Below, in pieces: positions 5,000 to 57,537 of a DNA stretch of 59,209 bases; the stretch's first letter is position 1, and every line of letters begins with the position of its first letter. Origin of the DNA: Aristaeellaceae bacterium (GTDB lineage: Bacteria > Bacillota > Clostridia > Christensenellales > Aristaeellaceae); contig JBJEUL010000176.1 in the NCBI GenBank assembly GCA_051883835.1, positions 1 to 59,209 of the forward strand, in the 5' to 3' direction. Below the pieces are notes generated by a model that made no database searches, was not told the origin of the DNA, and saw only the letters and a program-made list of their open reading frames with translations. A program made the position numbers and the translations under genes.

Positions 5000-5207
5000 C
5001 TCCAAGGGACCGCGCCAGCGGAAAGGGGTCAAGGGGCGATGCCCCTTGTGGGGTGCAGGGGTGAAACCCCTGCGCAGGTCTGGGCGGCAGCCCAGCGCAA
5101 CACGTTAGACCGGCAAAAAGGAAAAGAGAAAAACGCGAGTTTCCCAGCAGACGGCGCAGCCCACCCGCGTCGGAAACGGCAGGTTCCGCCATCTGCAAAG
5201 GAACGCC
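5000..5207 (+). repeat. Multi-hairpin intergenic repeat, copy A (full length; module 2 diverged)
   Basis: Starts 1 nt after the ispG TAA. Carries the CGCGCCAGCG core, hairpins CAAGGGGC-GAT-GCCCCTTG, GCAGGGGT-GAA-ACCCCTGC and CTGGGC-GGCA-GCCCAG, a purine-rich linker, the GTTTCC...GGAAAC module, and the GTTCC...GGAAC hairpin. Confidence 0.9.
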
Positions 5208-5235
5208 TTTCCCCTCCCGTATGGCTCCCACCATC

Positions 5236-5272
5236 GCAAAACAGCCCGTTCCGGTTCTGCACCGGGACGGGC
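5236..5272 (-). terminator. Intrinsic terminator of the XRE regulator gene
   Basis: Stem GCCCGTTCCGG/CCGGGACGGGC (5244-5272). On the minus strand it is followed by TGTTTTG. Confidence 0.5.
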
Positions 5273-5274
5273 CA

Positions 5275-5517
5275 TTATCGTATTTCCTGCCCCAGATGCT
5301 GGAACAGCGGAGAATCGAAAAACGCCTGAATGGAGATGTCCAGCCCATCGCAGAGCTTCTTCAACGTGGAAAGGGTAACGCTGTGATTGCGGCCGTTGAC
5401 GATGTTGTTCACCGTGGACTGTGTTACGCCGCTGAGCGTACACAGGCGGTTCACCGTGATGCCCCGCTCCTGACACAGCTCCAGAATCCGCTCACGAACG
5501 GCTTCACCAATCATCAT
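5275..5517 (-). CDS. XRE-family helix-turn-helix transcriptional regulator (80 aa)
   Basis: IGEAVRERILELCQERGITVNRLCTLSGVTQSTVNNIVNGRN is a typical HTH_XRE pattern. Convergent with ispG. Confidence 0.8.
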   Translation of the reverse strand: MMIGEAVRERILELCQERGITVNRLCTLSGVTQSTVNNIVNGRNHSVTLSTLKKLCDGLDISIQAFFDSPLFQHLGQEIR

Positions 5518-8700: not shown

Positions 8701-10181
8701 TGAGCAAGGACGGCTTCGACATTCCCTTCGAGGTGTTCCTGGGCTTTGAGGGCGACAAGGTGCCCGATATCGACCTGAACTTCTCCGGCGAGTACCAAAA
8801 CCGCGCCCACCACTATGTGGAGGAGCTCTTCGGCCATGACCATGTGTTCCGCGCAGGCACCATCACGGGCCTTGCGGACAAGACGGCCTATGGCTATGTC
8901 GCGAAGTACCTGGAGGAGCGGGGCATTCAGACGGGCAACACGGAAAAGGAGCGGCTGGCCGCAGGCTGCGTGGGCGTGAAAAAGACCACCGGCCAGCATC
9001 CCGGCGGCATGGTGGTGGTGCCCAAGGAATACGAAATCTACCAGTTCACCGCCGTGCAGCATCCTGCGGACGATTTGGAGAGCGACTTTACCACCACGCA
9101 TTTCGACTTCAACTCCATGCACGACATTCTGGTCAAGCTGGACTGTCTGGGGCATGATGACCCCACGGTCATTCATATGCTGGAGGAGCTGACGGGCATC
9201 CCGCCCACGGAGGTGCCGCTGGATGACCCGGCAGTGCGCAGCCTGTTCCACTCCCCGGAGGCTCTGGGCGTTACCTCCGAGCAAATCGACTGCTCCACGG
9301 GCACCTTCGGCATCCCGGAATTCGGCACGGCCTTTGTGCGCGGCATGCTGGACGATACCACGCCTTCCACCATGGAGGAGCTGATTCGCATCTCCGGCCT
9401 GTCCCACGGCACGGACGTGTGGCTGGGCAATGCGCAGGATTTGATTCGCTCCGGCACAGCCGTGCTGCGGGAATGCGTCTGCTGCCGTGACGATATCATG
9501 AACTACCTCATCGACCGGGGCGTGGCCCCCAAGCTGGCCTTCACCACCATGGAGTCGGTGCGCAAGGGCAAGGGCCTCAAGCCTGAGATGGAAAAGGCCA
9601 TGATAGACAACAACGTGCCGGAATGGTTCATTGATTCCTGCAAGAAAATCAAGTACATGTTCCCCAAGGGCCATGCTGTGGCCTATGTGACCAGCGCACT
9701 GCGCATTGCGTGGTTCAAGGTGCATCATCCGCTGGCCTATTACGCGGCGTACTTCACCGTGCGCGGCGATGGTTTCGATGCCTGCACCATGCTCATTGAC
9801 CCGCAGACCATCAAGCAGAAAATCCGCGATATCAAGAACGATCCCAAGGCCACTGCCAAGGATCAAACCGCCGTCACCAGTCTGGAGCTGGTGCTGGAAA
9901 TGAACATGCGCGGCTTCCGCTTCCTGCCCTGCGACCTGTACAAGAGCCACGTCAGCCGCTTCCTGATTGAGGACGGCGCGCTGCGCTGCCCCTTCACGAG
10001 CCTGGGCGGCCTGGGCGAAAGCGCGGCCATCGCCATTGTGCGCGAGCGCGACAAGGCCCCCTTCCTGTCCATTGAGGACATGAAGGAGCGCACCAAAATA
10101 TCCAGTGCCGTCATCGAGCTGCTCCGCGCCCACGGCAGTCTGGAGGGTCTGAGCGAAACCAGCCAGGTAAGCTTCTTCTAA
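5757..10181 (+). CDS. polC: DNA polymerase III PolC-type alpha subunit
   Basis: PHP motif ELHMHTNMS, inserted DEDD exonuclease (VLDFESTGL, HNAAFD, HRAVHDA), zinc finger CTHC/CPLC, polymerase core. GGAG RBS before ATG 5757. Confidence 0.95.
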   Translation: MSYEDLLSQIYAALPHLKGQLSSPRVVYVWAQGKVYITFDSAVLVEEAAFLKMESILRKVFPQKPLALRVVSPGLKEDFLDNISRYKQVLTDFLKRNYPASVSWMEQIDWRCDGERITLTFPDDFSLQYMARQNITGRLAQAVKDIFSADVKVELTVAGNQEARLEEMRRERDKALQAAVTLQELASDHAAPPKEKKERKPTAPRPKKEPEKAPEKKPEPIFPQMTDTALGKPILGRGIADHPVEMKELASDSGLVVVQGDIFKLETKELKGGEMLLVTFAITDYTSSILCKTFLRFRKGGGFGRRKDDEAPLPPITEEERRAVMEKVEQIKLGMNVKVRGECLYDSFARELSISVRDMVPMERIEREDTAEEKRIELHMHTNMSNMDAMTPAGDLIKRAIKWGHPAVAITDHGVVQSFPAAFNAVKKQPIKLIPGCEGYLIDDKDVVKDADDRPLDDTIIVLDFESTGLNTAVDRVIEIGAVKLVGGTVTDSLSLLVNPQRPLSPKITEITGITDMMLADKPTAEQAIPQLMAFMDGHPIAAHNAAFDAALLQAELRRLGITYHAPVLDTLTLARKLYPDMKTHKLGSVCKQLGVSLKNAHRAVHDATATALCLAKMFQQIKEEKGYTKLSDLNLLQGGAIGESYHVILLVKTQAGLVNLNRLVSIGHLDYFRRRPHMPKKIIQQYREGLIIGSACEAGELFRAVLDNEPWEKLKEIASWYDYLEIQPIGNNAFLVREGRVPDEEGLRELNRTIVRLGEELGKPVVATGDVHFLDPHNAINRAIIQAGMGYEDCDQQPPLYFKTTNEMLEEFAYLGPKKCHEVVIDNPRMIADQVEKLQLFPIHPKGEDTFQPLWEDAADNIQNMTWNTARELYGDPLPEIVVKRLEKELKSIIGYGFATLYNIAQKLVKKSNDDGYLVGSRGSVGSSLVARMCGITEVNALPPHYRCTHCRKGFFDVDKSLYQVGVDLPDKDCPLCGKPLSKDGFDIPFEVFLGFEGDKVPDIDLNFSGEYQNRAHHYVEELFGHDHVFRAGTITGLADKTAYGYVAKYLEERGIQTGNTEKERLAAGCVGVKKTTGQHPGGMVVVPKEYEIYQFTAVQHPADDLESDFTTTHFDFNSMHDILVKLDCLGHDDPTVIHMLEELTGIPPTEVPLDDPAVRSLFHSPEALGVTSEQIDCSTGTFGIPEFGTAFVRGMLDDTTPSTMEELIRISGLSHGTDVWLGNAQDLIRSGTAVLRECVCCRDDIMNYLIDRGVAPKLAFTTMESVRKGKGLKPEMEKAMIDNNVPEWFIDSCKKIKYMFPKGHAVAYVTSALRIAWFKVHHPLAYYAAYFTVRGDGFDACTMLIDPQTIKQKIRDIKNDPKATAKDQTAVTSLELVLEMNMRGFRFLPCDLYKSHVSRFLIEDGALRCPFTSLGGLGESAAIAIVRERDKAPFLSIEDMKERTKISSAVIELLRAHGSLEGLSETSQVSFF

Positions 10182-10366
10182 AGGGATCGCGCCAGCGTCG
10201 AAGGGGTCAAGGGGCGATGCCCCTTGTGGGGTGCAGGGGTAAAACCCCTGCGCAGGTCTGGGCGGCAGCCCAGCGCAACATATTCGAACAGCCAAAAGGA
10301 ATCGGAAAAAATCAGAGTTTCCAAGCAGACGACGCAGTTCGTTCGCGCCGGAAACGGCAGGTTCCG
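10181..10366 (+). repeat. Multi-hairpin intergenic repeat, copy B (modules 1-2)
   Basis: Begins at the polC TAA. Same three hairpins (hairpin 2 loop AAA) and module 2 with a TCGTT (G:T wobble) variant. Confidence 0.9.
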
Positions 10367-10443
10367 CAGCCTGCACCGCAGAGCCTAATTAACGCACTGG
10401 AGCTTCCATCAACAAGGGAAGGCCAGCGTTCAGGAGGTATATC

Positions 10444-14978: not shown

Positions 14979-15187
14979 CTCCAAGGGAACGCGCCAGCGT
15001 AAAAAGGGTCAAGGGGCGATGCCCCTTGTGGGGTGCAGGGGCAAGGCCCCTGCGCAGGTCTGGGCGGCAGCCCAGCGCAACACGTTCCATTTACTCAAAG
15101 GGAAAAGAAGCAACGTGAGTTTCCAGGCAGACGACGCAGTTCGTCCGCGTAGGAAACGGCAGGTTCCGAAGCCCGCCAGGGAACGCC
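14979..15187 (+). repeat. Multi-hairpin intergenic repeat, copy C (full length)
   Basis: Begins 2 nt after the stop of the PrsA-like gene. Hairpin 2 carries the C-G closing-pair variant GCAGGGGC-AAG-GCCCCTGC. Confidence 0.9.
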
Positions 15188-15226
15188 CTCATCCCCCGCT
15201 GCGCCCCGTTCCATTCCCGACAAACC

Positions 15227-15262
15227 AAAGGGACAGTCTGCCACCATGCAGGCTGTCCCTTT
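15227..15262. terminator. Bidirectional terminator between the PrsA-like gene (plus repeat C) and the GNAT gene
   Basis: AAAGGGACAG-16 nt-CTGTCCCTTT. An A-run and a T-run flank the stem. Confidence 0.55.
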
Positions 15263-17080: not shown

Positions 17081-17278
17081 ATGAAGCATATCCAGACCAT
17101 TCAAAATCCCTGCCTGAAGCAGTCCCTGGTGCACGGCGGCTGCGGCGAGTGCCAGGCCTCCTGCCAGAGCGCCTGCAAGACCAGCTGCACCGTGGCCAAC
17201 CAGTCCTGCGCCAACCGGGAGAACAACGCTGTCCTGGCCGGTAACGAGGGCAAGCTCAACCGCTCCTTCGGCAAGTAA
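17081..17278 (+). CDS. SCIFF (six-cysteines-in-forty-five) ranthipeptide precursor, C-terminally extended (65 aa)
   Basis: MKHIQTI leader plus core GGCGECQASCQSACKTSCTVANQSC, the SCIFF signature. Directly upstream of its radical SAM/SPASM maturase. Confidence 0.9.
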   Translation: MKHIQTIQNPCLKQSLVHGGCGECQASCQSACKTSCTVANQSCANRENNAVLAGNEGKLNRSFGK

Positions 17279-17363: not shown

Positions 17364-18719
17364 TTGATTCATACATTCAAGGCGGTGGGCCAGCCCATGC
17401 TGCTGGACGTGGGCAGCGGCGCGGTTCATGCCATCGACGATATGGCTTATGATGTGCTGAGCCTGTGGAACGACCACAGCGAGGCCGAAATCAAGGACGC
17501 GCTCCGGGACCGCTACACCGAGGCGGAGCTGGACGAGGTCATCGGCGAGCTGAAGCAGCTGGAGGAAATCGGCGCGCTCAACGCTCCCGACAACTATGAC
17601 GATGTGGAGCAGGTTCGCGAGAAGGGCACCATCAAGGCCATGTGCCTGCATGCCGCCCATGACTGCAACCTGCGCTGCAAGTACTGCTTTGCCGCCACGG
17701 GCGATTTCTGCATGGGTGAGCGCAAGCTCCTGCCCTACGAGGTGGGCAAGGCCGCGCTGGACTGGCTGGTGGAGCACAGCGGCAAGCGCGTGAACCTGGA
17801 GGTGGACTTCTTCGGCGGTGAACCGCTGATGAACTTCGAGGTGGTGAAGCAGCTGGTCGCCTATGGCCGCTCCATCGAGCAGGAGAAGCACAAGAAGTTC
17901 AAGTTCACCATCACCACCAACTGCGTGCTGATGAACGATGAAATCATCGACTTCCTGAACCGGGAAATGCACAACGTGGTCATCTCCATGGATGGCCGCC
18001 CCGAGGTGCATGACCGCATGCGCCCCACCGTCAACGGCAAGGGCAGCTACGCCATCATTGCCGAGAAGGCCAAGAAGTTCGCCGCCGCCCGCGGGGACAA
18101 GGAATACTACGTCCGCGGCACCTACACCGGCTACAACAAGGACTTCGGCAATGATGTGCTGTTCCTGGCGGATGAAGGCTTCGAGCAGCTGAGCGTGGAG
18201 CCTGTGGTCACCGACCCCCAGTGCGAGTACGCCCTGAAGGAGGAGGATTTGCCCCAGCTCAAGGCCGAGTATGACCGGCTGGCGCAAATCTACCTTGACC
18301 GCCGCGCCAACGGCAAGTGGTTCAACTTCTTCCATTTCAATGTGGATTTGGCAGGCGGCCCCTGCCTGCGCAAGCGGCTCACCGGCTGCGGCGCGGGCAA
18401 TGAGTACGTTGCCGTGACCCCCGATGGCGACATTTACCCCTGCCACCAATTCGTGGGCCGGGAGGGCTACCGGATGGGCAGCGTGCTGGACGGCACCTTT
18501 GACACGGAAATTCAGGACAGGTTTGCCCGCAACAACGTGTTGGCCAAGGAAAAGTGCCGGGAATGCTGGGCGCGGTTCTTCTGCTCCGGCGGCTGTGCGG
18601 CCAATGCGGAGGCCTTCCACGGGGACATCTCGCAGCCCTACGACATGGAGTGCCAGCTGGAGCGCAAGCGTCTGGAATGCGCCATGGCCATCTACGCCCG
18701 TGAGCATGCACGTTCCTGA
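17364..18719 (+). CDS. SCIFF radical SAM/SPASM maturase (thioether-forming)
   Basis: CNLRCKYC radical SAM cluster (CX3CX2C), GGEP motif, C-terminal SPASM cysteines (CGAG...YPCHQF...CRECWARFFCSGGCAA). TTG start with AGGAGG 8 nt upstream. Confidence 0.9.
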   Translation: MIHTFKAVGQPMLLDVGSGAVHAIDDMAYDVLSLWNDHSEAEIKDALRDRYTEAELDEVIGELKQLEEIGALNAPDNYDDVEQVREKGTIKAMCLHAAHDCNLRCKYCFAATGDFCMGERKLLPYEVGKAALDWLVEHSGKRVNLEVDFFGGEPLMNFEVVKQLVAYGRSIEQEKHKKFKFTITTNCVLMNDEIIDFLNREMHNVVISMDGRPEVHDRMRPTVNGKGSYAIIAEKAKKFAAARGDKEYYVRGTYTGYNKDFGNDVLFLADEGFEQLSVEPVVTDPQCEYALKEEDLPQLKAEYDRLAQIYLDRRANGKWFNFFHFNVDLAGGPCLRKRLTGCGAGNEYVAVTPDGDIYPCHQFVGREGYRMGSVLDGTFDTEIQDRFARNNVLAKEKCRECWARFFCSGGCAANAEAFHGDISQPYDMECQLERKRLECAMAIYAREHARS

Positions 18720-18724
18720 CAATT

Positions 18725-18912
18725 CCCCAGGGACCGCGCCAGCGGAAAGGGGTCAAGGGGCGATGCCCCTTGTGGGGTGCAGGGGTGAAGCCCCTGCGCA
18801 GGTCTGGGCGGCAGCCCAGCGCAACACGTTCGCATTGTAAAACGGAACCGCAAAAAACGTGAGTTTCCAAGCAGACGACGCAGTTCGTCCGCGCTGGAAA
18901 CGGCAGGTTCCG
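18725..18912 (+). repeat. Multi-hairpin intergenic repeat, copy D (modules 1-2)
   Basis: Begins about 6 nt after the SCIFF-maturase TGA. Hairpin 2 has the T:G variant (GCAGGGGT-GAA-GCCCCTGC). Confidence 0.9.
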
Positions 18913-18972
18913 CAGCCTCTATCGGTGTGCCCTCGCCCCAGTCGTATCTTTGCAGATTCTATAGAAAAAAGC

Positions 18973-24600: not shown

Positions 24601-24610
24601 CCCCCCCCCA

Positions 24611-24816
24611 ACGGACCGCGCCAGCGGAAAGGGGTCAAGGGGCGATGCCCCTTGTGGGGTGCAGGGGTGAAACCCCTGCGCAGGTCTGGGCGGCAGCCCA
24701 GCGCAACACGCCCGAACAGCAAAAAAGGAAAAGAGAAAACGTGAGTTTCCAAGCAGACAACGCAGTTCGTCCGCGTAGGAAACGGCAGGTTCCGCATACC
24801 TGCATGAGGAACGACC
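24611..24816 (+). repeat. Multi-hairpin intergenic repeat, copy E (full length)
   Basis: Follows the rfbD TAA after a C9 run. All four hairpins are present. Module 2 has GACAA (one mismatch). Confidence 0.9.
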
Positions 24817-24837
24817 TCATCCGACTTCGCTTCGCCC

Positions 24838-24872
24838 GGCCTACTCCCTGCATAGGGAGCAGGCCGCTTTTT
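24838..24872 (+). terminator. Intrinsic terminator downstream of repeat E
   Basis: GGCCTaCTCCCT-GCAT-AGGGAGcAGGCC followed by GCTTTTT. Confidence 0.6.
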
Positions 24873-24877
24873 ATGCC

Positions 24878-25275
24878 TGTGGATAACCTGCGCACCTGAA
24901 AGTTTTGACGGCAACAGGGCAATTTCCTGCATTTGCAGGAGCAGCATGGCCCGAAAGGGCCTGTTCGCCACCGATTCGGACAATGACAGGACAATCCAAT
25001 CATCATTTTTGTGCATAAATATGCAATTCAACAATTGGGGATATATCCAAAGAACGCCAAAAGTCCCGTGTTTGGCTGGGGATAAAATGCCCCGGAGCAG
25101 GGGAAAGCATGTGGAGGAAAGCTGTGGAAAACCTGTGGATAATGTGGATAACTCAGAAAGAATGGCGTAAATCAAGGATTTTCCGTTCGCAAGGCTGTGG
25201 ATAACGCTGTGCATTGTGTGGATGGATAACGCACTTACCCACAGGCCGAAAATGAAGGAGGCTTCATTTTCCACA
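24878..25275. promoter_or_regulatory. DnaA-box cluster in an AT-richer intergenic island
   Basis: Perfect TGTGGATAA (complement of TTATCCACA) at 24878, 25134, 25143 and 25196. One-mismatch boxes at 25077, 25123 and, inverted, 25267. Two-mismatch boxes at 25110 and 25217. AT-rich stretch at 25005-25050. Confidence 0.75.
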
Positions 25276-30193: not shown

Positions 30194-30215
30194 GCATGGT
30201 ACACGGTTCCTGTTT

Positions 30216-31736: not shown

Positions 31737-31845
31737 CTCCAAGGAACCGCGCCAGCGTCGAAGGGGTCAAGGGGCGATGCCCCTTGTTCGGTAGCAGGGG
31801 TGAAACCCCTGCGCAGGGCTGGGCGGCAGCCCAGCGCAACATGTT
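31737..31845 (+). repeat. Multi-hairpin intergenic repeat, copy F (module 1 only, truncated)
   Basis: Begins 2 nt after the dut TAA and ends after CCCAGCGCAAC. Inter-hairpin spacer variant GTTCGGTAGC, similar to the GCTCGGTAGC variant of copy H. Confidence 0.85.
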
Positions 31846-31896
31846 CGACCACCCTGTACCCCCATTGTTTTTTTGTGCCATGGGGAATCCGATTTC

Positions 31897-33342: not shown

Positions 33343-33376
33343 ATCCCCCCAAAAATACGCAAGGAGGTTCCCCATC

Positions 33377-34963: not shown

Positions 34964-34998
34964 TTCCTTCAGGCCCCGGCCTGCCCGGCGGTCTGCGT

Positions 34999-35033
34999 CC
35001 TGTCCGGGGGTCATGCCCCGGACAGGCTTTTCC
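34999..35033 (+). terminator. Intra-operon terminator/attenuator after the substrate-binding protein gene
   Basis: CCTGTCCGGGG-GTCATG-CCCCGGACAGG followed by CTTTTCC. Confidence 0.55.
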
Positions 35034-35054
35034 CTATTCTGAACATGGAAAGGC

Positions 35055-37967: not shown

Positions 37968-37974
37968 AGGAGGT

Positions 37975-38832: not shown

Positions 38833-38845
38833 GCGAGGTATACAC

Positions 38846-39481
38846 ATGAAGAACCGACTCATCACCCAGACCACCGAGTACGACTGCGGCCCGACCAGCC
38901 TCATCAATGCCCTGCGCTTCCTCTACGAGCGGGAGGAGCTGCCCCCCTGCCTCATCAAGAGCGTGTGGACGCTGTGCAACGATACCTTTTCCCTGCAGGG
39001 CGAGCATGGCAAGCGCGGCACCTCCCGGGCCGTGATGCGCTACCTCTGCTCCTGGCTGGAGGGCTTCGGAGAGGGGTGCCAGTTCCCGATTCGCACCGCC
39101 TATCAGGATGGCGAGGATGCTGTCATTGCGCCGGGGAGTCTGGTGGAGAGGTGCCTGAAAGAGGGCGGCGCGGCGGTGGTGCGCTGCTGGAGCGAGCATT
39201 ACCGGCACTATGTACTGCTGACCGGGCTGATGGCGGGCAACCGGGTGGCTCTGTTTGACCCCTATGACGAGCCGGATGAGGAAGTTTCGCAGGCCCCGGG
39301 GCTGGAAATCGTCCACGGGGAGAAGTTCTACAACATCACCCTGCCCATGGAGACCATGAACCTGCACGGGCAGACCAACTATGCCCTGGGCGACACGGAG
39401 GATCGGGAAATTCTCATGCTGTGGCGCACGCAGGCCACGAGCTGCGCGGTAGGAGGCCATTGTCCCCATGAAGCAACGTAA
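38846..39481 (+). CDS. Stand-alone peptidase C39-like (papain-fold) domain protein
   Basis: QTTEYDCGPTSLINAL (C39-type Q...DCG catalytic Cys context) and downstream HYVLLTG candidate His. No ABC exporter domain is attached. Confidence 0.6.
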   Translation: MKNRLITQTTEYDCGPTSLINALRFLYEREELPPCLIKSVWTLCNDTFSLQGEHGKRGTSRAVMRYLCSWLEGFGEGCQFPIRTAYQDGEDAVIAPGSLVERCLKEGGAAVVRCWSEHYRHYVLLTGLMAGNRVALFDPYDEPDEEVSQAPGLEIVHGEKFYNITLPMETMNLHGQTNYALGDTEDREILMLWRTQATSCAVGGHCPHEAT

Positions 39482-39974
39482 CAAGGCCCAGCGTGTTGCC
39501 CTGCTGGGGCTGCTCATGGCCCTGATGCTGGTGCTGGGCCTGGTGGAGAACATGATTCCGCTCAATGCCGGTGTCCCGGGCATCAAACTGGGCCTGAGCA
39601 ACGGCGTGCTGATTTTCGCGCTGTACATGCTGGACATCCCCACCGCCTTCGGGCTGATGATGGGCAAGGTGCTTTTGGCCAGCATGCTGTATGCAGGCTT
39701 TGGCGCGGCCCCCTATGCGCTGTGCGGCGGCGTGCTGAGCCTTGCCGTGATGGCCCTGCTCAGCCGGGTGAAGGACATTCACCCCATCACGGTGAGCATG
39801 CTGGGCGGTGCGATGCACAACATCGGGCAGGTAGCCTTGGCGATGCTCATCACCCGTACACCGGGGCTGGTGGGCTACATGGGCGTGCTTGTCGCCGTGG
39901 GCTTGGGCTGCGGCCTGCTCACGGGCGTGTGCGCCACGCTGGTGATGAAGCATTTGAAGCATATCCGCCTGTAA
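39468..39974 (+). CDS. Gx transporter family protein (Hpre_diP_synt_I-like membrane protein)
   Basis: 168 aa, 5 TM helices, LVENMIPLNAGVPGIKLGLSNGVLIFAL motif. 14-nt overlap with the C39-like gene. Confidence 0.62.
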   Translation: MKQRNKAQRVALLGLLMALMLVLGLVENMIPLNAGVPGIKLGLSNGVLIFALYMLDIPTAFGLMMGKVLLASMLYAGFGAAPYALCGGVLSLAVMALLSRVKDIHPITVSMLGGAMHNIGQVALAMLITRTPGLVGYMGVLVAVGLGCGLLTGVCATLVMKHLKHIRL

Positions 39975-40008
39975 TCTGCCAGGACAATCCAGATAAGGAG
40001 CTGAACCC

Positions 40009-40857
40009 ATGCCCCGAGACCTGACCCCCAACGAGAAGATTGAGCGAAGCCTCATCAAGCGTTTCCGCAAGGAATTATGGAAGCCCTTCATCGTGGCGGT
40101 GAAACGCTACGAGCTGATTCAGCCCGGGGACAGAATTGCCGTGTGCATCTCCGGCGGCAAGGATTCGATGCTGCTGGCCAAGCTGATGCAGGAGCTGCAC
40201 CGGCACACCTTCATTCCCTTTGAGCAGGTGTTCATCGTGATGGACCCGGGGTACAGCCCGGCCAACCGCGCCCGCATTGAGGAAAACGCCCGGCTGATGG
40301 AGATTCCCATTCAGATTTTTGAGAGCGACATTTTCGATGTGACCGGCAAGATGAGCTGCAATCCCTGCTACATGTGCGCCCGGATGCGCCGGGGCTTCCT
40401 CTACGACCGGGCGCGAGAGCTGGGCTGCAACAAGATTGCGCTGGGCCATCACTTCAATGATGTGATTGAAACCACCGTGATGGGCATGTTCTATGGGGCG
40501 CAGCTGCAGGGGATGATGCCCAAGCTGCACAGCAAGAACTTTCCGGGCATGGAGCTGATTCGTCCGCTGTACTGCATCCATGAGGACGATATCCTGTCGT
40601 GGTGCCGGTATAATGAGCTGACGTTCATCAACTGTGCCTGCCGTCTGACGGAGCGGGCCGCGCAGGATGTGCATGTATCCAAGCGGCAGGAGGTGAAGGA
40701 GCTGCTGCGCGCGCTGCGGCAGACGAATCCGGATGTAGAAAAGAGCGTGTTCAACAGCATCCACGCCGTGAGTCTGGACACGATGCCCGGCTGCAAGTGG
40801 CGCGGTCAGGAGCATACCTTTCTGGAGTGGTACGACACCGCCGAAGATGCAGAGTAG
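40009..40857 (+). CDS. ttcA: PP-loop ATPase, tRNA 2-thiocytidine biosynthesis TtcA-like
   Basis: PP-loop IAVCISGGKDSMLL, CNPCYMCARMRRG and CAC Cys motifs, GHHFNDVIET. Confidence 0.78.
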   Translation: MPRDLTPNEKIERSLIKRFRKELWKPFIVAVKRYELIQPGDRIAVCISGGKDSMLLAKLMQELHRHTFIPFEQVFIVMDPGYSPANRARIEENARLMEIPIQIFESDIFDVTGKMSCNPCYMCARMRRGFLYDRARELGCNKIALGHHFNDVIETTVMGMFYGAQLQGMMPKLHSKNFPGMELIRPLYCIHEDDILSWCRYNELTFINCACRLTERAAQDVHVSKRQEVKELLRALRQTNPDVEKSVFNSIHAVSLDTMPGCKWRGQEHTFLEWYDTAEDAE

Positions 40858-41071
40858 ACCCCACCAAGGGAACGCGCCAGCGGAGAAGGGTCAAGGGGCG
40901 ATGCCCCTTGTGGGGTGCAGGGGTAAAACCCCTGCGCAGGTCTGGGCGGCAGCCCAGCGCAACATGTTGAAACAACCCAAAAGGAAAAGGAAAAATCAGA
41001 GTTTCCAAGCAGACGACGCAGTTCGTCCGCGTCGGAAACGGCAGGTTCCGGGGAACTGCAAGAGGAACGCC
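40858..41071 (+). repeat. Multi-hairpin intergenic repeat, copy G (full length)
   Basis: Begins immediately after the ttcA TAG. All four hairpins are present. Forms a tail-to-tail pair with copy H. Confidence 0.9.
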
Positions 41072-41203
41072 CCATCAACACACACGGCCCTGCAGAATGT
41101 ATGCTGTCCTGCAGGGCCGTCGTATGAACAAGAAAGCTGCTGCCCGGTTGAGGGACAGCGGCTTGTGTGCATTGGGGGAACGATACGCTCCTTTGGGAGA
41201 ATT

Positions 41204-41399
41204 CGGAACATGCCGTTTCCAGCTCGAACGAACTGCGTCGTCTGCTTGGAAACTCACGCTTTTTCCTTTCTTTTTGGATAAGTGGGACGTGTTGCGCTGG
41301 GCTGCCGCCCAGACCTGCGCAGGGGTTTCACCCCTGCTACCGAGCAAGGGGCATCGCCCCTTGACCCCTTTCCGCTGGCGCGTTCCCTTGGTGGGGTCG
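41204..41399 (-). repeat. Multi-hairpin intergenic repeat, copy H (only minus-strand copy; modules 1-2)
   Basis: The reverse complement aligns end to end with the other copies (CCAAGGGAACGCGCCAGCGGAAAGGGGTCAAGGGGCGATGCCCCTTG...GAGTTTCCAAGCAGACGACGCAGTTCGTTCG). Confidence 0.9.
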
Positions 41400-41417
41400 G
41401 AATAGGGCACCGCCTGC

Positions 41418-41446
41418 TTGACGAAATGGGCGGAAAACGATATAAT
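41418..41446 (+). promoter_or_regulatory. Putative sigma-A promoter of the small-ORF-secDF unit
   Basis: TTGACG (41418-41423), 17 nt, TATAAT (41441-41446). Confidence 0.5.
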
Positions 41447-41500
41447 AGCGTCATTGTGTGCGGCAGAAGCATTCGGGCATCGGGAAAGGAGCGTGTGCGC

Positions 41501-41839
41501 ATGAAATACGCCGGGCGGATTGTGCTGGGGCTGTGCTTTGCGCTGCTGCTCCTTCTGGGCGCGCGGACGCTGGTGGAGGGGCCGCAGGAAACGGCGCATG
41601 CCCTGCCCTGCCTGCCGGAGGGCAGTCTTGTGGCCCTGGAGGCCCAGACAGTCCAGCAGGGAGCCACGGCGCAGGAGGATACCCGTCCCACCTTCCGCGA
41701 GCGCGCCGCACGGCAGGAATTGCAGGCTCAGGGGCCTGCCCTCCTCCCCGTGCGCGACCGCAACGGCCGCCCCATGGCCAGCCGTACCTATGCCCGAACC
41801 GCCTATACGGTCTGTCCCATGGAGGATATGCCCGGATAG
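41501..41839 (+). CDS. Hypothetical small secreted/anchored protein (112 aa)
   Basis: N-terminal hydrophobic segment MKYAGRIVLGLCFALLLLLGA. GGAAAGGAG RBS and a consensus promoter upstream. No family recognised. Confidence 0.45.
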   Translation: MKYAGRIVLGLCFALLLLLGARTLVEGPQETAHALPCLPEGSLVALEAQTVQQGATAQEDTRPTFRERAARQELQAQGPALLPVRDRNGRPMASRTYARTAYTVCPMEDMPG

Positions 41840-41902
41840 ACAAAAGCCCGCACCCCATCGGTTTACCCCCCAAAATATCAATCAATGGAGGAAGCACGCG
41901 AT

Positions 41903-43234
41903 ATGAAATCCAACAATCGCAAGCGCGGCAATGGCAAGACCCGCTCCATCATCGCGCTGTCCATCGTGCTGGTGCTGACCATCGCCATCGGCATCATCGC
42001 AGTGACCGGCATGCCCCTTGACAGCCGCGGCCTGTACAAGCTCAAGTCCTGGCTGCCCACCACCAACGCCGAGAACTGGCCCACCACCCTGTCCCTGGGC
42101 CTTGACCTGCGCGGCGGCGTGTATGTGGAGTACTCCGCTGCCCGCCCCGAGAACAGCGAGGCCAATTTCGACTCCCTGATGGAAGGCACCATCGGCGTCA
42201 TCCAGCAGCGTCTGACCGACAAGGGCTATGCGGAAAGCACCGTGCAGCGCATCGGCGGTGACGGCATCCGCGTGGAAATCCCGGACGTGACCGACCCCGC
42301 CGCCGTGCTGGATCTGATTGGCTCTCCCGCGCAGCTGGAGTTCCGTACCCCCAGCGGTGAAACCTTCATGACCGGCGACATGGTGGAAACTGCCACCGTG
42401 GCCTATCAGGAAGGCGAGTATGTCGTGGCCTTCAAGCTCAACGATGAGGGCGCGAAGATTTTCGCGGAAAAGACCGCTGAGTACCTGAACCAGTCCATCG
42501 CCATCTATCTGGACGGCGTGCAGCTCATCAATCCCCGGGTGCAGACCGTCATCACCGGCGGCAGCGGCATCATCAACGGCATGGACGGCGAGGAAAATGC
42601 CCGCACCATCGCGGCTAAGATTCAGTCCGGTGCCCTGCCCCTGGTGCTGACCCAGCAGAAGGTTGATACCGTGTCCGCCACCCTGGGCGACAACGCCCTG
42701 TCCACCTCCGTGCTGGCGGCCATGATCGGCATTCTGCTGGTGATGCTGGTGATGGTCATCCGCTATCGCCTGAACGGCGTCATTGCTTCCTGGGCCCTGG
42801 TCATCTACATCATTACCCTGTTCTTCCTCATCGCGGTCATTCCGGGCATTCAGCTGACGCTGCCGGGCCTGGCCGGTGTGGTGCTGGGCATCGGCATGGC
42901 GGTGGACGCCAATGTTATCATCTTCGAACGCTTTAACGAGGAAGTCCGCGCGGGCAAGAGCCTGAAGGCCTCCGTGCGCATGGGCTTCAAGAACGCCATG
43001 AGCGCCATCCTGGACGCCAACGTGACCACGCTGATCGCCTCCCTGGTGCTTCTGTGGTACGGCACGGGCTCCATCCAGGGCTTCGCCAAGACGCTGCTGC
43101 TGAGCGTGGTGACCTCCATGTTCACGGCGATTGTGGTGACGCGCTTCCTGATGAAGAATGTTGTGAACCTGGGCGGCCTTGATGTGAAGCTGTTCACCTC
43201 CGGCGTGCAGGTGCGGAAGGAGGAGCAGAAATGA
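41903..43234 (+). CDS. secD: Protein translocase subunit SecD
   Basis: LGLDLRGGVYVEY, periplasmic-type P1 domain, C-terminal 5-TM block with GIGMAVDANVIIFERF. Confidence 0.9.
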   Translation: MKSNNRKRGNGKTRSIIALSIVLVLTIAIGIIAVTGMPLDSRGLYKLKSWLPTTNAENWPTTLSLGLDLRGGVYVEYSAARPENSEANFDSLMEGTIGVIQQRLTDKGYAESTVQRIGGDGIRVEIPDVTDPAAVLDLIGSPAQLEFRTPSGETFMTGDMVETATVAYQEGEYVVAFKLNDEGAKIFAEKTAEYLNQSIAIYLDGVQLINPRVQTVITGGSGIINGMDGEENARTIAAKIQSGALPLVLTQQKVDTVSATLGDNALSTSVLAAMIGILLVMLVMVIRYRLNGVIASWALVIYIITLFFLIAVIPGIQLTLPGLAGVVLGIGMAVDANVIIFERFNEEVRAGKSLKASVRMGFKNAMSAILDANVTTLIASLVLLWYGTGSIQGFAKTLLLSVVTSMFTAIVVTRFLMKNVVNLGGLDVKLFTSGVQVRKEEQK

Positions 43235-44127
43235 CAATCAAGAATCACGCCAAGGTCTGCCTGATGGTCTCGGCGGCCATCATGGCACTTGCGCTGGTGC
43301 TGAGCCTGTTTGGCATGGGCATCAACATGGGTATTGACTTTGCCGGCGGTCTGTCCATGCAGTACAGCATGGGCGGTGCCTTCGAGCAGAATGATGTGAA
43401 GGCCGTGCTGGATGCGATGAACGTGGGCGACTACGCCATCACCGTGCAGGGCGCGAACCGTGATGAAGTGAACGTGCGCATCAAGAGCGTGAACGAGGAC
43501 GGCGTACAGGGCGTGCAGGCAGCCTTCGAGGAGGGCCTTGCCGAGAAGTACCCCGCCATGGCGCAGTCCGGTGACGTGAACTACGTCGGCCCCGTGGCCG
43601 GTGCCACGCTGCTGAAGAACGCCTTCATCTCCGTGCTGCTGGCCAGCGTGCTGATGCTGGTGTACATCGCCTTCCGCTTCGACTTCAACTCCGGCGTGGC
43701 GGCGGTGTTCGGCCTGCTGCATGACGTGCTGATGATGCTGGCCTTCATGGTGCTGCTGCGCAATTTCGTGCAGATGAATTCGTCCTTCATTGCGGCGATG
43801 CTGACCATCGTGGGCTATTCCATCAACAACACCATCGTCATCTTTGACCGCATCCGCGAGAACGCCCGCAAGATGCCCACTGCGGCCCGTGAGGACGTGG
43901 TGAACCGCTCGGTCAAGGAGTGCCTGGGCCGCACCATCAACACCACCCTGACCACGCTGATTACCATTGTTGCGCTGTATGTGCTGGGTGTGGACTCCAT
44001 CAAGGAGTTTGCGCTGCCCATCATCATTGGCATTCTGAGCGGTGCCTACAGTGCGAACATGATTAACGGCTACGTCTGGGCCGTGCTGGAGGAGCGTCGT
44101 CGCGCCCCCAAGGCCAAAAAAGCCTAA
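43231..44127 (+). CDS. secF: Protein translocase subunit SecF
   Basis: GIDFAGG motif, TIVGYSINNTIVIFDRIREN. 4-nt overlap with secD. Confidence 0.9.
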   Translation: MTIKNHAKVCLMVSAAIMALALVLSLFGMGINMGIDFAGGLSMQYSMGGAFEQNDVKAVLDAMNVGDYAITVQGANRDEVNVRIKSVNEDGVQGVQAAFEEGLAEKYPAMAQSGDVNYVGPVAGATLLKNAFISVLLASVLMLVYIAFRFDFNSGVAAVFGLLHDVLMMLAFMVLLRNFVQMNSSFIAAMLTIVGYSINNTIVIFDRIRENARKMPTAAREDVVNRSVKECLGRTINTTLTTLITIVALYVLGVDSIKEFALPIIIGILSGAYSANMINGYVWAVLEERRRAPKAKKA

Positions 44128-44337
44128 CTCCAAGGGACCGCGCCAGCGGAAAGGGGTCAAGGGGCGATGCCCCTTGTGGGGTGCAGGGGTGAAGCCCCTG
44201 CGCAGGTCTGGGCGGCAGCCCAGCGCAACACGCCCCACTTATCCAAAAGGAAAGGAAAAAGCGTGAGTTTCCAAGCAGACGACGCAGTTCGTCCGCGCTG
44301 GAAACGGCAGGTTCCGGGGACTGAAAGAGGAACGACC
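44128..44337 (+). repeat. Multi-hairpin intergenic repeat, copy I (full length)
   Basis: Begins 1 nt after the secF TAA. The first 31 nt from the stop codon (TAACTCCAAGGGACCGCGCCAGCGGAAAGGGG) are identical to copy A. Hairpin 2 has the T:G variant. Confidence 0.9.
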
Positions 44338-44507
44338 TCATCCGACCTCGCAGCCCTCGGCCCCGAAGACTTTCCGCCCCCTCTCGCTGGGCTTCCTGCC
44401 CAACATGCGGTGCCGTGAAATACCACTTCCTTGACAAACAGAGGAGGGGCCTTGATGTTCAAGGTTCCTCCTTTTCGATTCAGCCATGAAGGATGGAGGC
44501 AAGACCC

Positions 44508-55036: not shown

Positions 55037-55078
55037 ACCGATGGAACGTTATGACAGATGATTCGAGGACAGAAGTTT

Positions 55079-57433
55079 ATGATGAAAGAGAAAACACTGC
55101 GCGTCCTGGAGTTTACAAAGATTCGTGATCAGCTGGCCGGCAAGGCCCTGACGGAGATGGGTGCGGAACGCTGCCGCGCCCTGACCCCCTCGTGCAACAT
55201 GGCTGAAATCCAGCTCTGGCAGCAGGAAACCGAGGAAGCCGCCGTTGTGCTGCAATACATGGGCGGCCACCCGATGATGGCCTTTCAGGACGTGCGGCCC
55301 TTCCTGATGATGGCCGAGAAGGGGGCAACGCTGTCCCCCCGGGCTCTGCTGAATGTGGCTGAGCTGCTGCGGGCTGCCCGCGTGGCCCGGGACGCGCTGG
55401 TCACCGACAGGGACAACACGCCCCTGCTGCGCGGCAAGGCCGAGGGCCTGTGCGTGCTGCGCAATCTGGAGCAGGATATCTCCGATGCCATCCTCTCGGA
55501 GGATGAGATTGCCGACCAGGCATCCAGCGAGCTGATGAACATCCGCCGGCATTTGCGGGGAGCCAATGAGCGCATCAAGGAGAAGCTGAACCAGATGGTG
55601 CGCAACCAGACCTTCCAAAAGTACCTGCAGGACCCCATCATCACCGTGCGCAATGACCGCTATGTGCTGCCGGTGAAGGCGGAATACCGCGCCAACGTGC
55701 CGGGCCTTGTGCATGACCAGTCCACCTCCGGGGCCACGCTGTTCATTGAGCCGCTGGCGGCGGTGGAGATGGGCAACGAGCTGAAGCAGTGGGAGCTCAA
55801 AGAGCGGCAGGAGATTGAACGCATTCTGGCCGCGCTGTCGGCGGAGGTGGCTCCCTACGCCGCCGCGCTGCGGGATACCATTGACCAGATGGCGGAGCTG
55901 GATTTCATCTTCGCCAAGGGCCTGCTGGCCCGGGAGCTGTTCGCCGTCACGCCCAAGCTCAATCAGGAAGGGCGTATCAACATCATCCGCGGACGGCATC
56001 CGCTCATTGACCGGGAGAAGGTCGTGCCCACCAACCTGTGGATGGGCCGGGACTTCACCACGCTCATCATCACCGGCCCCAACACCGGCGGCAAGACCGT
56101 CACGCTCAAAACCGTGGGCTTGTTCACGCTCATGGCGCAGGCCGGTTTGCAGGTGCCTGCGGATATCGGCACGGAGCTGGCGGTGTTCGAGCAGGTGTTT
56201 GCGGACATTGGCGATGAGCAGTCCATTGAGCAGAGCCTGTCCACCTTCTCCAGCCATATGGTGAACATCGTCAGCATCATGCAGGAGGTCACGCCCCGCG
56301 ACCTGGTGCTGTTCGATGAGCTGGGCGCAGGCACCGACCCCACCGAGGGTGCGGCACTGGCCCAGGCCATCCTGACGCGGCTTTTGCACATCCGTGTGCG
56401 GACGCTGGCCACCACCCATTACAGCGAATTGAAGGCCTTCGCGCTGTCCACCCGGGGCGTGGAGAACGCTTCCGTGGAGTTTGACGTGGAGACCCTGCGG
56501 CCGACCTACCGGCTGTCCATCGGCGTGCCGGGCAAGTCGAATGCCTTTGAAATCAGCCGCAAGCTGGGTCTGCCCGAGAACCTCATCGACGCCGCCAAGG
56601 AGCTGCTCTCCGGCGAGAACATCCGCTTTGAGGATGTGATTGCCAATGCGGAATACCACCGGCAGGTGGCCGAGCGCGAACGGGAAATCGCCGCGCAGGC
56701 CAGCGCAGAAACCGTCCGCCTGCGGGACGAGGCGGAGAAGCTGCGCAAGGAAATGGAGGAGAAGCGCGAAGGCGTCATGCGCAAGGCCAAGGAGGACGCC
56801 CGCCGCCTGATGGAGCAGACCCGCCGGGAATCCGAGAGCATCATCGCTGACCTGAAGCGCATGAAAAAGGAAATGCGCTCTCCCGATGCCGAAACCAACG
56901 CCATCCGCAAGCGCATTGAGCAGGGCGTGGACAGCCTCTCCGAGGGCCTGACCAAGAAGGTGGACAACACCCTGCCGCCCAAAACCGTCAAGCCCGGCGA
57001 CCGCGTGACCATTCTCACCCTGGGCCAGCAGGGCACGGTGCTTTCCGCCCCTGACAGCCGGGGCGAGGTGCAGCTGCAGGCAGGCATCATGAAATTCAAG
57101 GCGCACTTGTCGCAGCTGCGGCTCATCCGGGAGGAGCAGCCCAAGCAGAAGGCCACCGTCCGCACCGATACCGGCGCGATGACTCGCATGGCTCGGATGG
57201 AATGCGACGTGCGCGGCATGACCCTTGACGAAGCCCTCGATGCCGTCGACCAATTCCTGAACGAAGCCGTCCTCTCCGGCCTGAACGAGGTCTCCATCAT
57301 CCACGGCAAAGGCACCGGTGTCCTGCGCAGCGGCATCCAGCAGCACCTGCGCCATCACCTGCTGGTGAAAAGCAGCCGCCTTGGCATCTACGGCGAAGGC
57401 GAAACCGGCGTCACCATCGTCACCCTGAAATAA
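55079..57433 (+). CDS. mutS2: Endonuclease MutS2
   Basis: Walker A ITGPNTGGKT, LVLFDELGAGTDP, long coiled coil, C-terminal Smr domain (DVRGMTLDEAL...IIHGKGTGVLR). Confidence 0.93.
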   Translation: MMKEKTLRVLEFTKIRDQLAGKALTEMGAERCRALTPSCNMAEIQLWQQETEEAAVVLQYMGGHPMMAFQDVRPFLMMAEKGATLSPRALLNVAELLRAARVARDALVTDRDNTPLLRGKAEGLCVLRNLEQDISDAILSEDEIADQASSELMNIRRHLRGANERIKEKLNQMVRNQTFQKYLQDPIITVRNDRYVLPVKAEYRANVPGLVHDQSTSGATLFIEPLAAVEMGNELKQWELKERQEIERILAALSAEVAPYAAALRDTIDQMAELDFIFAKGLLARELFAVTPKLNQEGRINIIRGRHPLIDREKVVPTNLWMGRDFTTLIITGPNTGGKTVTLKTVGLFTLMAQAGLQVPADIGTELAVFEQVFADIGDEQSIEQSLSTFSSHMVNIVSIMQEVTPRDLVLFDELGAGTDPTEGAALAQAILTRLLHIRVRTLATTHYSELKAFALSTRGVENASVEFDVETLRPTYRLSIGVPGKSNAFEISRKLGLPENLIDAAKELLSGENIRFEDVIANAEYHRQVAEREREIAAQASAETVRLRDEAEKLRKEMEEKREGVMRKAKEDARRLMEQTRRESESIIADLKRMKKEMRSPDAETNAIRKRIEQGVDSLSEGLTKKVDNTLPPKTVKPGDRVTILTLGQQGTVLSAPDSRGEVQLQAGIMKFKAHLSQLRLIREEQPKQKATVRTDTGAMTRMARMECDVRGMTLDEALDAVDQFLNEAVLSGLNEVSIIHGKGTGVLRSGIQQHLRHHLLVKSSRLGIYGEGETGVTIVTLK

Positions 57434-57437
57434 GTCA

Positions 57438-57537
57438 ACTCCAAGCAATCGCGCCAGCGTCGAAGGGGTCAAGGGGCGATGCCCCTTGTGGGGTGCAGGG
57501 GCAACGCCCCTGCGCAGGTCTGGGCGGCAGCCCAGCG
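57438..57537 (+). repeat. Multi-hairpin intergenic repeat, copy J (module 1 only, truncated)
   Basis: Begins about 5 nt after the mutS2 TAA. Hairpin 2 has the C-G variant GCAGGGGC-AAC-GCCCCTGC. Ends at CCCAGCG. Confidence 0.85.

Follow-up and report, generated by a model that had tools for sequence, protein, structure and literature searches.

Interspersed structured repeats are, to our knowledge, well studied in Proteobacteria, pneumococci and Neisseria and hardly at all in uncultured Clostridia of the gut and rumen. The REP unit is an imperfect palindrome of 20-40 nt, and in Enterobacteria and Pseudomonas such units, with their RAYT (TnpA-REP) enzymes, form short GC-rich palindromes with a conserved tetranucleotide (GTAG) at the 5' foot. 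They cluster with linkers into composite elements (BIMEs) in which the units alternate in orientation, reach very high copy number and are located in transcribed 3' regions, from stop codon to terminator. BOX elements of Streptococcus pneumoniae (boxA-boxB-boxC) are modular, with optional modules, and occur in a Firmicute host; they are intergenic and co-transcribed, have a stable predicted fold and no known mobilising enzyme. We know of no strict just-after-stop position or sense-orientation rule for BOX. Mycobacterial MIRUs lie between operon genes, in gene orientation and tightly abutting the upstream stop codon, as tandem units of 40-100 nt that carry small ORFs overlapping stop and start codons. 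PATEs, derived from IS200/IS605, have subterminal hairpins (one per end), neither terminal inverted repeats nor target duplication, and insert 3' of an A/T-rich tetra- or pentanucleotide in strand-specific orientation. Correia elements (Neisseria) and ERIC/IRU (Enterobacteria) are structured intergenic repeats that occur in abundance, are transcribed and can influence the ends of mRNAs; they are long imperfect palindromes or MITEs bounded by terminal inverted repeats, and occur in both orientations.

The repeat described here combines traits of these systems. It was analysed in a window of 59,209 nucleotides (the whole stretch of DNA under study) from an uncultured gut bacterium of the Clostridia, a PolC-type Firmicute with 62% GC whose closest matches are Aristaeellaceae, a family of the order Christensenellales in GTDB. 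Like REP/BIME, it consists of short GC-rich palindromic units with a conserved 5' foot, clustered with linkers into composite elements of very high copy number in transcribed 3' regions. Unlike in REP/BIME, the foot is GGGT or GGT, all three units are direct in every copy, an unrelated nested-stem module (module 2) is attached, and the host is a Firmicute. It shares the listed traits of BOX but has no sequence similarity to it, and the position and orientation of MIRU but no MIRU-like small ORF: there is no conserved start codon or frame, and the hairpins are the defining feature. It resembles PATEs in its hairpins, its orientation and its want of long terminal inverted repeats, and may share their insertion context and lack of target duplication, but carries several hairpins in tandem, lacks sharply defined ends, and comes with no TnpA or TnpB that was found. 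With Correia and ERIC/IRU it has in common that it is abundant, structured, intergenic and probably transcribed, though it differs from such long palindromes or MITEs found in either orientation. The copies and their neighboring features are:

5000..5215, plus strand: full copy after ispG (gcpE), starting 0 nt past its TAA stop; module 1 at 5000-5103, module 2 at 5139-5182
5242-5272: terminator-like hairpin (by eye) downstream of the preceding copy
10177..10395, plus strand: full copy after polC, within an operon without terminator; module 1 at 10177-10281, module 2 at 10317-10360
14979..15200, plus strand: full copy after a PpiC/SurA-like gene; module 1 at 14979-15083, module 2 at 15119-15162
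15227-15262: original terminator of the PpiC/SurA-like gene, downstream of the preceding copy
18724..18940, plus strand: full copy after the SCIFF radical SAM maturase gene; module 1 at 18724-18827, module 2 at 18863-18906
24606..24837, plus strand: full copy with conserved tail after rmlD; module 1 at 24606-24709, module 2 at 24745-24788
from 24838: rmlD terminator, directly 3' of the preceding copy
31737..31842, plus strand: module 1-only copy between the dUTPase gene and a promoter at 31897-31925
40862..41078, plus strand: full copy after a PP-loop ATPase gene; module 1 at 40862-40965, module 2 at 41001-41044
41086-41118: hairpin downstream of the preceding copy
41185..41393, minus strand: full copy (41204); module 1 at 41289-41393, module 2 at 41213-41255
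44128..44362, plus strand: full copy with conserved tail after secF; module 1 at 44128-44231, module 2 at 44267-44310
44440-44475: original secF terminator, downstream of the preceding copy
57439..57543, plus strand: copy with module 1 alone behind mutS2, immediately 5' of the next gene's ribosome-binding site
5030, 10208, 15010, 18754, 24636, 31768, 40892, 44158 and 57470, plus strand: positions of the hairpin 1 19-mer
41345-41363, minus strand: hairpin 1 19-mer

The ten copies that the first-pass annotation had placed in the window are found at their positions. The 19-mer of hairpin 1, CAAGGGGCGATGCCCCTTG, has 10 exact matches, against 0.07 expected by chance, and all ten copies score 111-127 bits with a covariance model of module 1, which detects no further forward-orientation copy in the whole window. 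The core of module 2 (at most 2 mismatches) is present at 7 of the 10 hairpin 1 sites (0 expected), and an eighth, more diverged module 2 lies 3' of module 1 in copy 5000. Repeat finding returns one family with seven members of 214 nt and another with nine of 109 nt. Eight copies are full, comprising module 1, purine linker, module 2 and tail, and two (31737 and 57438) have module 1 only. The repeat is roughly 220 nt long, non-coding and built of hairpins, and its ten copies take up about 1.9 of the 5.3 kb of intergenic DNA (~36%). All are intergenic, as had been claimed, the modelled 5' end of the polC copy (10181) containing the polC stop codon, an overlap of 5 nt. Nine share the orientation of the flanking plus-strand genes, again in agreement with the first description, and one (41204) is on the minus strand.

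Alignments bear out the layout proposed for module 1, linker and module 2, namely a trio of GC-rich hairpins followed by a linker rich in purines and then by a nested stem. The fourth hairpin (GTTCC...GGAAC) fares differently: it stands in 5 of the 8 full copies and not as a general feature of full copies. In copy 41204, which would be the sixth, GGAGC replaces GGAAC in the 3' arm. The 3' arm of the fourth hairpin lies within a sequence that partly duplicates the start of the element, CAAGGGAACGC; this duplication, seen 3' of module 2 in roughly 6 of 11 copies, offers modest support for a terminal direct repeat. A weak 3-bp hairpin (CGC-GCCA-GCG) lies upstream of hairpin 1, and some copies have a further conserved tail beginning GACCTCATCCGRCYTCGC. 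The hairpin modules are nearly invariant among the paralogous copies of the window while the linkers differ by 30-40%.

The purine linker followed by a GTG start and the peptide SFQADDAVRPR... could be read as a ribosome-binding site and coding sequence; this is rejected because 3 of 8 copies lack the GTG start and the reading frame varies from copy to copy. The motif CGCGCCAGCG resembles the core of a type I-E CRISPR repeat, a likeness judged coincidental, with a stem of only 3 bp and no covariation.

Module 1 belongs to a wider family. In 32 aligned members from many genomes it is an array of three hairpins, each of 6-8 bp and preceded by GGGT or GGT, and the covariance model detects this array in numerous further metagenome genomes of Clostridia. 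Compensatory changes occur in 19 of 25 pairs, and 98.8% of cells are paired, compared with 30-55% when the partners are slid. Covariation in this alignment thus shows the predicted hairpins to be maintained by compensatory substitutions. In L127a and L048, module 2 retains its outer stem around a different inner hairpin. Pattern searches with module 1 match 3 contigs of a metagenome collection and no viral contig; module 2 has no match in JGI metagenomes. BLAST against plasmids and phages gives partial matches only, to hairpins 1 and 2, and the hairpin motif, besides being shared by many genomes of Clostridia, occurs on a small plasmid and on a phage contig.

With Rfam 15 the window gives no match at the gathering threshold, the region 40800-44400 gives only chance-level matches at E <= 10, and the arrays in 18 related loci give none. 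A full-text literature search for the hairpin sequences returned nothing relevant. The suggestion that no named Rfam family is involved thus holds at gathering and permissive thresholds across the window and the related loci. The proposal of an undescribed structured RNA or non-autonomous mobile element likewise gains support, from these searches, from the compensatory changes and from empty orthologous sites. Beyond that description are the tight coupling to stop codons and the membership in a Clostridia family of GGGT-hairpin arrays. The repeat is a real, apparently undescribed relative of bacterial repeats of the REP/BIME/BOX type and not a new kind of system.

Nine of the 10 copies begin within -5 to +5 nt of a stop codon that ends a long plus-strand ORF. 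Random intergenic placement would achieve this at an estimated rate of about 0.08 per copy, which gives P of about 1e-9. At secF, rmlD and ppiC, the element is followed downstream by a terminator that has orthologues in relatives. Since the copy is upstream of the terminator where one exists, it should be transcribed as 3' UTR, and we infer that each copy is transcribed within the 3' UTR of its upstream gene. The stop codon is TAA at 7 of 9 filled sites and at 17 of 45 others (Fisher p = 0.033, weak at n = 9). The 5' flanks of most copies end in TAAC, TGAC, CGAC or AGAC; between this putative target and CAAGGG lies a variable stretch of 0-8 nt, and the ends of the element are not sharp. The plus strand is the leading strand by GC skew. 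A replication origin at a cluster of DnaA boxes (24878-25275) was considered and rejected, as the skew keeps its sign across the cluster. In L008, two inverted copies each stand behind their own convergent gene, which indicates that orientation tracks the gene.

Relatives with 93-96% protein identity lack the element at five sites, where their stop codon and their terminator or promoter are otherwise the same. These are the sites at secF (empty in L116-L119), ppiC (L127, L130, L131), the SCIFF radical SAM maturase (L127, L130), rmlD (L133) and dUTPase (L133, L137). At rmlD in L133, the stop codon is followed by 13 nt and then the orthologous terminator. The closest empty sites are too diverged from the filled ones for base-level comparison. 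The polC site is filled in L127, where the orthologous copy has the same linker variant, and unfilled in L130/L131, whose polC has 96.5% nucleotide identity to that of L127; the unfilled spacer of L130 is unrelated sequence and not a clean excision site. No copies were found in L116-L119, L130-L137 and L140. L127 also has a tandem arrangement of module 1, module 2 and module 1. Comparison of these loci supports an element that would be mobile, or at least gained and lost. As a separate observation, L120 has a different insertion at the secF site, which is not repeated within the L120 locus.

No enzyme that could mobilise the repeat has come to light near it. Transposase, integrase and Cas genes had been described as absent from the window, and none is seen (Pfam on 40 of about 54 genes); most of the genes outside the Pfam scan correspond to genes annotated in relatives or to the Pfam families of those genes. 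About 1 Mb of related loci contains no transposase that was found, and a crude regex scan of all ORFs there for the HUH motif gives no credible candidate. No RAYT was found among the window genes covered by the Pfam scan or, with the crude motif scan, in the related loci, and no gene of a tnpA/tnpB-carrying element is seen in the related loci examined. Long terminal inverted repeats are lacking, complementarity being limited to 5-6 nt (GGGAAC/GTTCC) with variable 3' ends. The flanks reveal no recurring target-site duplication, and the 3' boundary is not sharp. A non-autonomous element is supported.

The best explanation, on which we regard the balance as about even, is a family of hairpin repeats of the REP/BIME/BOX kind that has multiplied in this lineage, resides in 3' UTRs and is moved in trans by an HUH/Y1-type transposase. 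Copies would be made and inserted by an enzyme of this type that recognises hairpins in single-strand DNA and is encoded elsewhere in the genome, possibly a RAYT or a protein like the TnpA of IS200/IS605. The putative enzyme would insert 3' of a short A-rich target, TAAC or more loosely NRAC. In a GC-rich genome such targets may be supplied mainly by sense-strand stop codons, which would explain both the adjacency to stop codons and the orientation. The inserted array would then be tolerated, or be mildly useful, as 3' UTR structure. The GGGT/GGT foot, the lack of terminal inverted repeats and of obvious target duplication, and the TAAC-like flanks hint at an enzyme of the HUH type. The variable junction of 0-8 nt is unlike the precise junctions of IS200/IS605 and counts against this explanation, as do the lack of a transposase among the genes and loci scanned, the direct orientation of the units, the unrelated polC spacer of L130 and the weakness of the TAA excess. 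The invariant hairpins and drifting linkers fit selection for a host function as well as they fit several master copies.

Such selection is the core of a more doubtful explanation, which we hold tentatively: a host-selected, cis-acting RNA module of the 3' UTR, whose position and orientation are set by selection and not by insertion bias. It could serve as a barrier to 3'-to-5' exonucleases, as a terminator or attenuator, or as a modulator of translation termination and ribosome release, the last being a role that REPs of E. coli reportedly have when they lie within 15 nt of a stop codon. The sense orientation between stop codon and terminator and the near invariance of the hairpins agree with this, as does the identity of the orthologous polC copies (86.5%, against 76.7% at fourfold sites of polC), but half of hairpins 1 and 2 is gone from the orthologous polC copy of L127, and the same genes manage without the element in close relatives. 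In L078, L108 and L110, from other Clostridia, a T-tract comes directly behind the array's final hairpin, as in an intrinsic terminator. Sense-strand G.T exceeds A.C by 12 to 5, which is not significant (p = 0.07). Both strands are predicted to fold equally well (-101.5 kcal/mol), and the conserved A.C mismatch of module 2 is on the sense strand, where the antisense would have G.U. Copy 41204 and the two L008 copies also stand behind terminators or without an upstream gene: copy 41204 is convergent with copy 40862..41078, follows no minus-strand gene, precedes a terminator at 41159-41139 on the minus strand, and has 24 nt between its 5' end and the -35 box of the promoter that follows on the plus strand.

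A version that joins insertion and selection is unlikely in our estimate: a Clostridia-wide, unnamed REP-like system whose transposase effectively targets the stop codon (TAA + C) and whose copies the host keeps as RNA structures.

A classical MITE, a deletion derivative of an IS with a DDE transposase that is cut and pasted via terminal inverted repeats with target-site duplication, is very improbable. The interspersed, non-coding repeat of roughly 220 nt is in the size class, its 5' end (GGGAAC) has short complementarity to GGTTCC after module 2, and its TA-containing 5' flanks recall TA-targeting MITEs such as Correia. The inverted repeats do not extend beyond the 5-6 nt noted above, however, and no recurring duplication is visible; the strong orientation bias, variable 3' ends, module 1-only copies and tandem modules of L127 are also unexpected for MITEs defined by such repeats.

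Still less credence is due to recombination sites (attC-, dif- or att-like) of a site-specific recombinase that mark cassettes or points of rearrangement. Each copy stands behind a stop codon in sense orientation, as attC does in integrons, and in L008 a GNAT gene of low GC lies between the two inverted copies; the flanking genes of the window, however, are core, syntenic housekeeping genes (polC, secDF, ispG, mutS2) and not cassettes, and no integrase is nearby. The convergent pair 40862-41393 lies at a breakpoint of an inversion relative to relatives, but no copy is present at the second breakpoint (30193-30294).

That the copies are small-RNA genes in their own right, or an artefact of assembly or duplication, can hardly be entertained: their size and stable predicted fold (z = -3.4) would suit small RNAs, but no promoter is conserved (the sole promoter-like match inside a copy is a weak 9/12 in one linker) and the copies abut stop codons, while an artefact, which the first-pass annotation had raised as a window-only alternative, is excluded by the unique flanks of every copy and by orthologous and paralogous copies in five other, independent assemblies from other samples.

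Repeats of this kind break metagenome assemblies (several contigs break inside copies), mark rearrangement sites and create spurious ORFs, such as the several of 100-270 aa that run through copies in the window. That about a third of the intergenic DNA of the window consists of the repeat, and that its hairpin motif occurs in many Clostridia, points to a common trans-acting partner, which would be either a transposase or an RNA- or DNA-binding protein. The just-after-stop and sense-orientation rule could separate insertion targeting from selection. If the Clostridia-wide system with a stop codon as target is real, a GGGT-hairpin element would home, in sense orientation, to the very start of 3' UTRs, and the copies kept by the host would act behind terminating ribosomes, affecting the stability of mRNA 3' ends, termination or ribosome release.

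The first-pass annotation's claim of ten intergenic copies is confirmed. The 19-mer of hairpin 1 has ten exact matches in the window (nine on the plus strand and one on the minus strand, 0.07 expected), the module 2 core, allowing up to 2 mismatches, is matched at seven places (0 expected), and an eighth, diverged module 2 lies behind the copy at 5000. A de novo repeat search of the window yields families of 7 × 214 nt and 9 × 109 nt. The module 1 covariance model (R1) scores all ten copies at 111–127 bits, and its scan of the window returns no forward-orientation copy beyond them. Together they account for about 1.9 kb of the window's 5.3 kb of intergenic DNA. The proposed layout of three hairpins, purine-rich linker and nested module 2 is borne out by the copy alignments, which give the following parts:

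Part 1: C/T-rich 5′ end, CTCCAAGGGAMC
Part 2: weak 3-bp hairpin, CGC-GCCA-GCG
Part 3: three strong hairpins, H1 to H3
Part 4: purine-rich linker, variable
Part 5: nested module 2
Part 6: GGCAGGTTCCG
Part 7: tail, variable

Copies 31737 and 57438 end after module 1; module 2 always has module 1 upstream and never occurs without it. Mechanical ORFs of 100–270 aa traverse element copies on both strands (window 40806–41881), such as 41075–41881 (minus strand) and 40847–41281 (plus strand); these might be annotated in error as hypothetical proteins bearing motifs like KGVKGRCPL.

The copies obey a strict position rule: nine of the ten begin within −5 to +5 nt of a stop codon that ends a long, high-GC3 plus-strand ORF. 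With about 47 plus-strand gene ends, about 3.4 kb of other intergenic DNA and either orientation allowed, random placement would give this at roughly 0.08 per copy, and nine of ten would then have P ~1e-9. The copies behind polC and mutS2 are within operons. At three other sites, a terminator recognisably orthologous to that of relatives is located downstream of the element:

44440–44475: secF terminator
24838–24872: rmlD terminator
15227–15262: ppiC terminator

The element therefore lies inside the transcription unit and is presumably transcribed. Beyond the window, close family members also lie in sense orientation behind stop codons (loci from other genomes or contigs, distance from the stop codon):

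L072 copy: 0 nt, sense
L048 copies: 0 and 19 nt, sense
L038 copy: 6 nt, sense
L126 copy: 14 nt, sense
L127 polC copy: 2 nt, sense

Two inverted copies in L008 (Eubacteriales bacterium SUG2562) are each behind their own convergent gene, but past that gene's terminator. In this locus (225–1282) the two full copies, module 1 outward, flank a low-GC GNAT acetyltransferase gene (554–994) and sit between the terminators of the two convergent genes, an arrangement that looks like a composite transposon.

The sole exception to the rule in the window is the minus-strand copy 41185–41393, convergent with copy 40862. No minus-strand gene precedes it, and a minus-strand terminator of its own follows at 41159–41139. 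The block 30294–40857 (ksgA to PP-loop ATPase) is inverted with respect to relatives L132–L137 and L140; the GNAT, DUF1801 and ECF-transporter genes found behind the PP-loop gene in relatives are missing from the window. One inversion breakpoint (40857–41450) corresponds to the convergent pair of copies, and the other (30193–30294) carries none. In relatives the PP-loop gene, or its operon, faces an ECF-transporter gene convergently; given this and the inversion of the block, the minus copy may be what is left of a 3′ UTR whose gene the rearrangement removed, although no gene remnant was found.

Comparison with relatives reveals sites that are filled in the window and empty, i.e., without the element at the orthologous spot, elsewhere:

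secF: empty in L116–L119 (stop, 20 nt, terminator)
ppiC: empty in L127, L130 and L131 (in L130 and L131, orthologous terminator 19 nt behind the stop)
Radical SAM: empty in L127 and L130 (no element)
rmlD: empty in L133 (stop, 13 nt, terminator)
dUTPase: empty in L133 and L137 (no element)

The polC site of L127 is filled by a true orthologue of the window copy, the linker variant GGAATCGGAAAA being common to both, and the two copies are 86.5% identical, as against 76.7% at polC fourfold sites. L130 and L131 share 96.5% nucleotide identity with L127 in polC, yet have an unrelated 68-nt spacer at this site; the polymorphism is real, though there is no clean excision footprint. Among the relatives at 89–95% protein identity, L127 has three copies and L116–L119, L130–L137 and L140 have none. 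Full copies at 86–88% identity occur in SUG2562 (L008, L086) and L126. Several contigs start or stop within copies, as expected for a multi-copy repeat. Two further features were seen in such loci. In L120 (10903–11247; a species with 82% SecF identity), an unrelated, hairpin-rich insertion of about 250 nt separates the secF stop codon from the terminator, at the spot used by the element in the window, and is not repeated within the 21-kb locus. In L127 (10829–11296), a 156-nt unit occurs three times in tandem downstream of a ppiC-like gene, overlapping a minus-strand gene in its 3′ portion.

The consensus fold by RNAalifold contains H0 to H3 as well as the module 2 stem. In 32 module 1 matches from 17 sources, aligned to the model (a fit that favours pairing), 98.8% of cells are paired, compared with 30–55% when partners are slid 1–3 columns; both sides change in 19 of 25 pairs, and none of 500 shuffles reaches the observed values. 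Given the effect size and the raw sequences, there is little doubt that the module 1 structure is kept, despite the model-fitted alignment. GGGT or GGT precedes every hairpin in the raw aligned sequences. Support for module 2 is weaker, with compensatory changes in 2 pairs; even so, the outer stem GTTTCC/GGAAAC is retained in L127a, where the inner hairpin is swapped, and reads GTTTCA/TGAAAC in L048. Other lineages (L037, L038) carry a different conserved hairpin module behind module 1. The selected structure may be one of RNA or of single-stranded DNA, on either strand: both strands fold at −101.5 kcal/mol, sense-strand G.T outnumbers A.C by 12 to 5 (p = 0.07), and module 2 conserves an A.C on that strand. 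GGGT-hairpin arrays are also present on the 1.7-kb uncultured-bacterium plasmid pRGF00221 (L138, HG796849.1, 1188–1278) and on a human-faecal phage contig (L139, MT837061.1, 3981–4083; 63.8 bits with the module 1 model). A separate repeat family in other Clostridia (L001, L015, L016, L125, e.g., L125 1940–2140) has a conserved 5′ module, ACAGCGGGAAAYTGTTTG...ACTTCCGC, attached to hairpins 1 and 2 in almost unchanged form, frequently in tandem.

The window (62% GC) is a core-gene segment of a Firmicute chromosome, encoding PolC, IspG, SecDF, RecJ, RelA, MutS2, the sporulation proteins YabP/YabQ and the SCIFF maturase. The nearest proteins (93–95% identity) belong to MAGs named Aristaeellaceae bacterium and to metagenomes from pig and other guts. 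As the first-pass annotation had stated, a search for transposase, integrase or Cas genes found none (Pfam on 40 of ~54 window genes; most others correspond to gene calls in relatives or to the Pfam families of those genes). GC skew is positive across the whole window, and therefore the plus strand is the leading strand; nearly all genes are co-directional with replication. A SCIFF-type six-cysteine peptide gene (17081–17278) is followed by a radical SAM/SPASM maturase (17364–18719) and then by an element copy. Between the rmlD terminator and an amidase gene (24878–25275), 4 perfect TTATCCACA and 5 one-mismatch DnaA boxes cluster within 400 bp (17 matches in the whole window, 5.5 expected), conserved in L133. 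Because the GC skew keeps its sign there, these boxes look like a cluster located away from the origin rather than oriC itself. A strong promoter, TTGACA-17-TATCAT (31897–31925), precedes a 26-codon Met/Cys-rich ORF (31972–32052, MFMLMNEMCTRMGTQRLCAEPGHARF), with an operon for M20 peptidase and Opp peptide transporter downstream. The ORF is also conserved in L133 and L137 and may encode a leader peptide that senses sulphur amino acids.

The earlier proposal of a non-autonomous mobile element or structured RNA agrees with what is observed: interspersed, non-autonomous copies, present or absent at orthologous sites, with structurally constrained hairpins and sense orientation at stop codons. The element would be moved by a putative hairpin-recognising HUH/Y1 single-strand DNA transposase, because the REP-like unit is a tetranucleotide plus palindrome, no long terminal inverted repeats and no recurring target duplication are seen, 5′ flanks in most copies end in TAAC, TGAC, CGAC or AGAC, TAA stops are in excess at filled sites (7/9 vs. 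17/45, p = 0.033) and the top strand is on the lagging-strand template. If the target included the sense-strand stop codon, position and orientation would both follow with no need of selection. The main competing reading is that an RNA function in the 3′ UTR is selected for, favoured by hairpin modules that are near-invariant beside diverged linkers and by T-tracts behind the last hairpin in distant members; mobilisation by such an enzyme and this selection are compatible. A TIR-and-TSD MITE is unlikely from copy ends and flanks, and a coding repeat is rejected by copy alignments and ORF frames, as are an integron cassette array and an artefact on other grounds.

This is a genuine, dense and apparently unnamed repeat family: the element has no Rfam match, consistent with the initial reading, and a search of one paper library returned none with its sequences or a description of such a repeat. 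It is alike in kind to REP/BIME and BOX elements, but is set apart by three hairpins in direct orientation with GGGT feet, by the module 2 joined to them and by its strictly sense-oriented position directly behind the stop codon. With so few copies in relatives, the dense spacing in the window reflects expansion within this one lineage.
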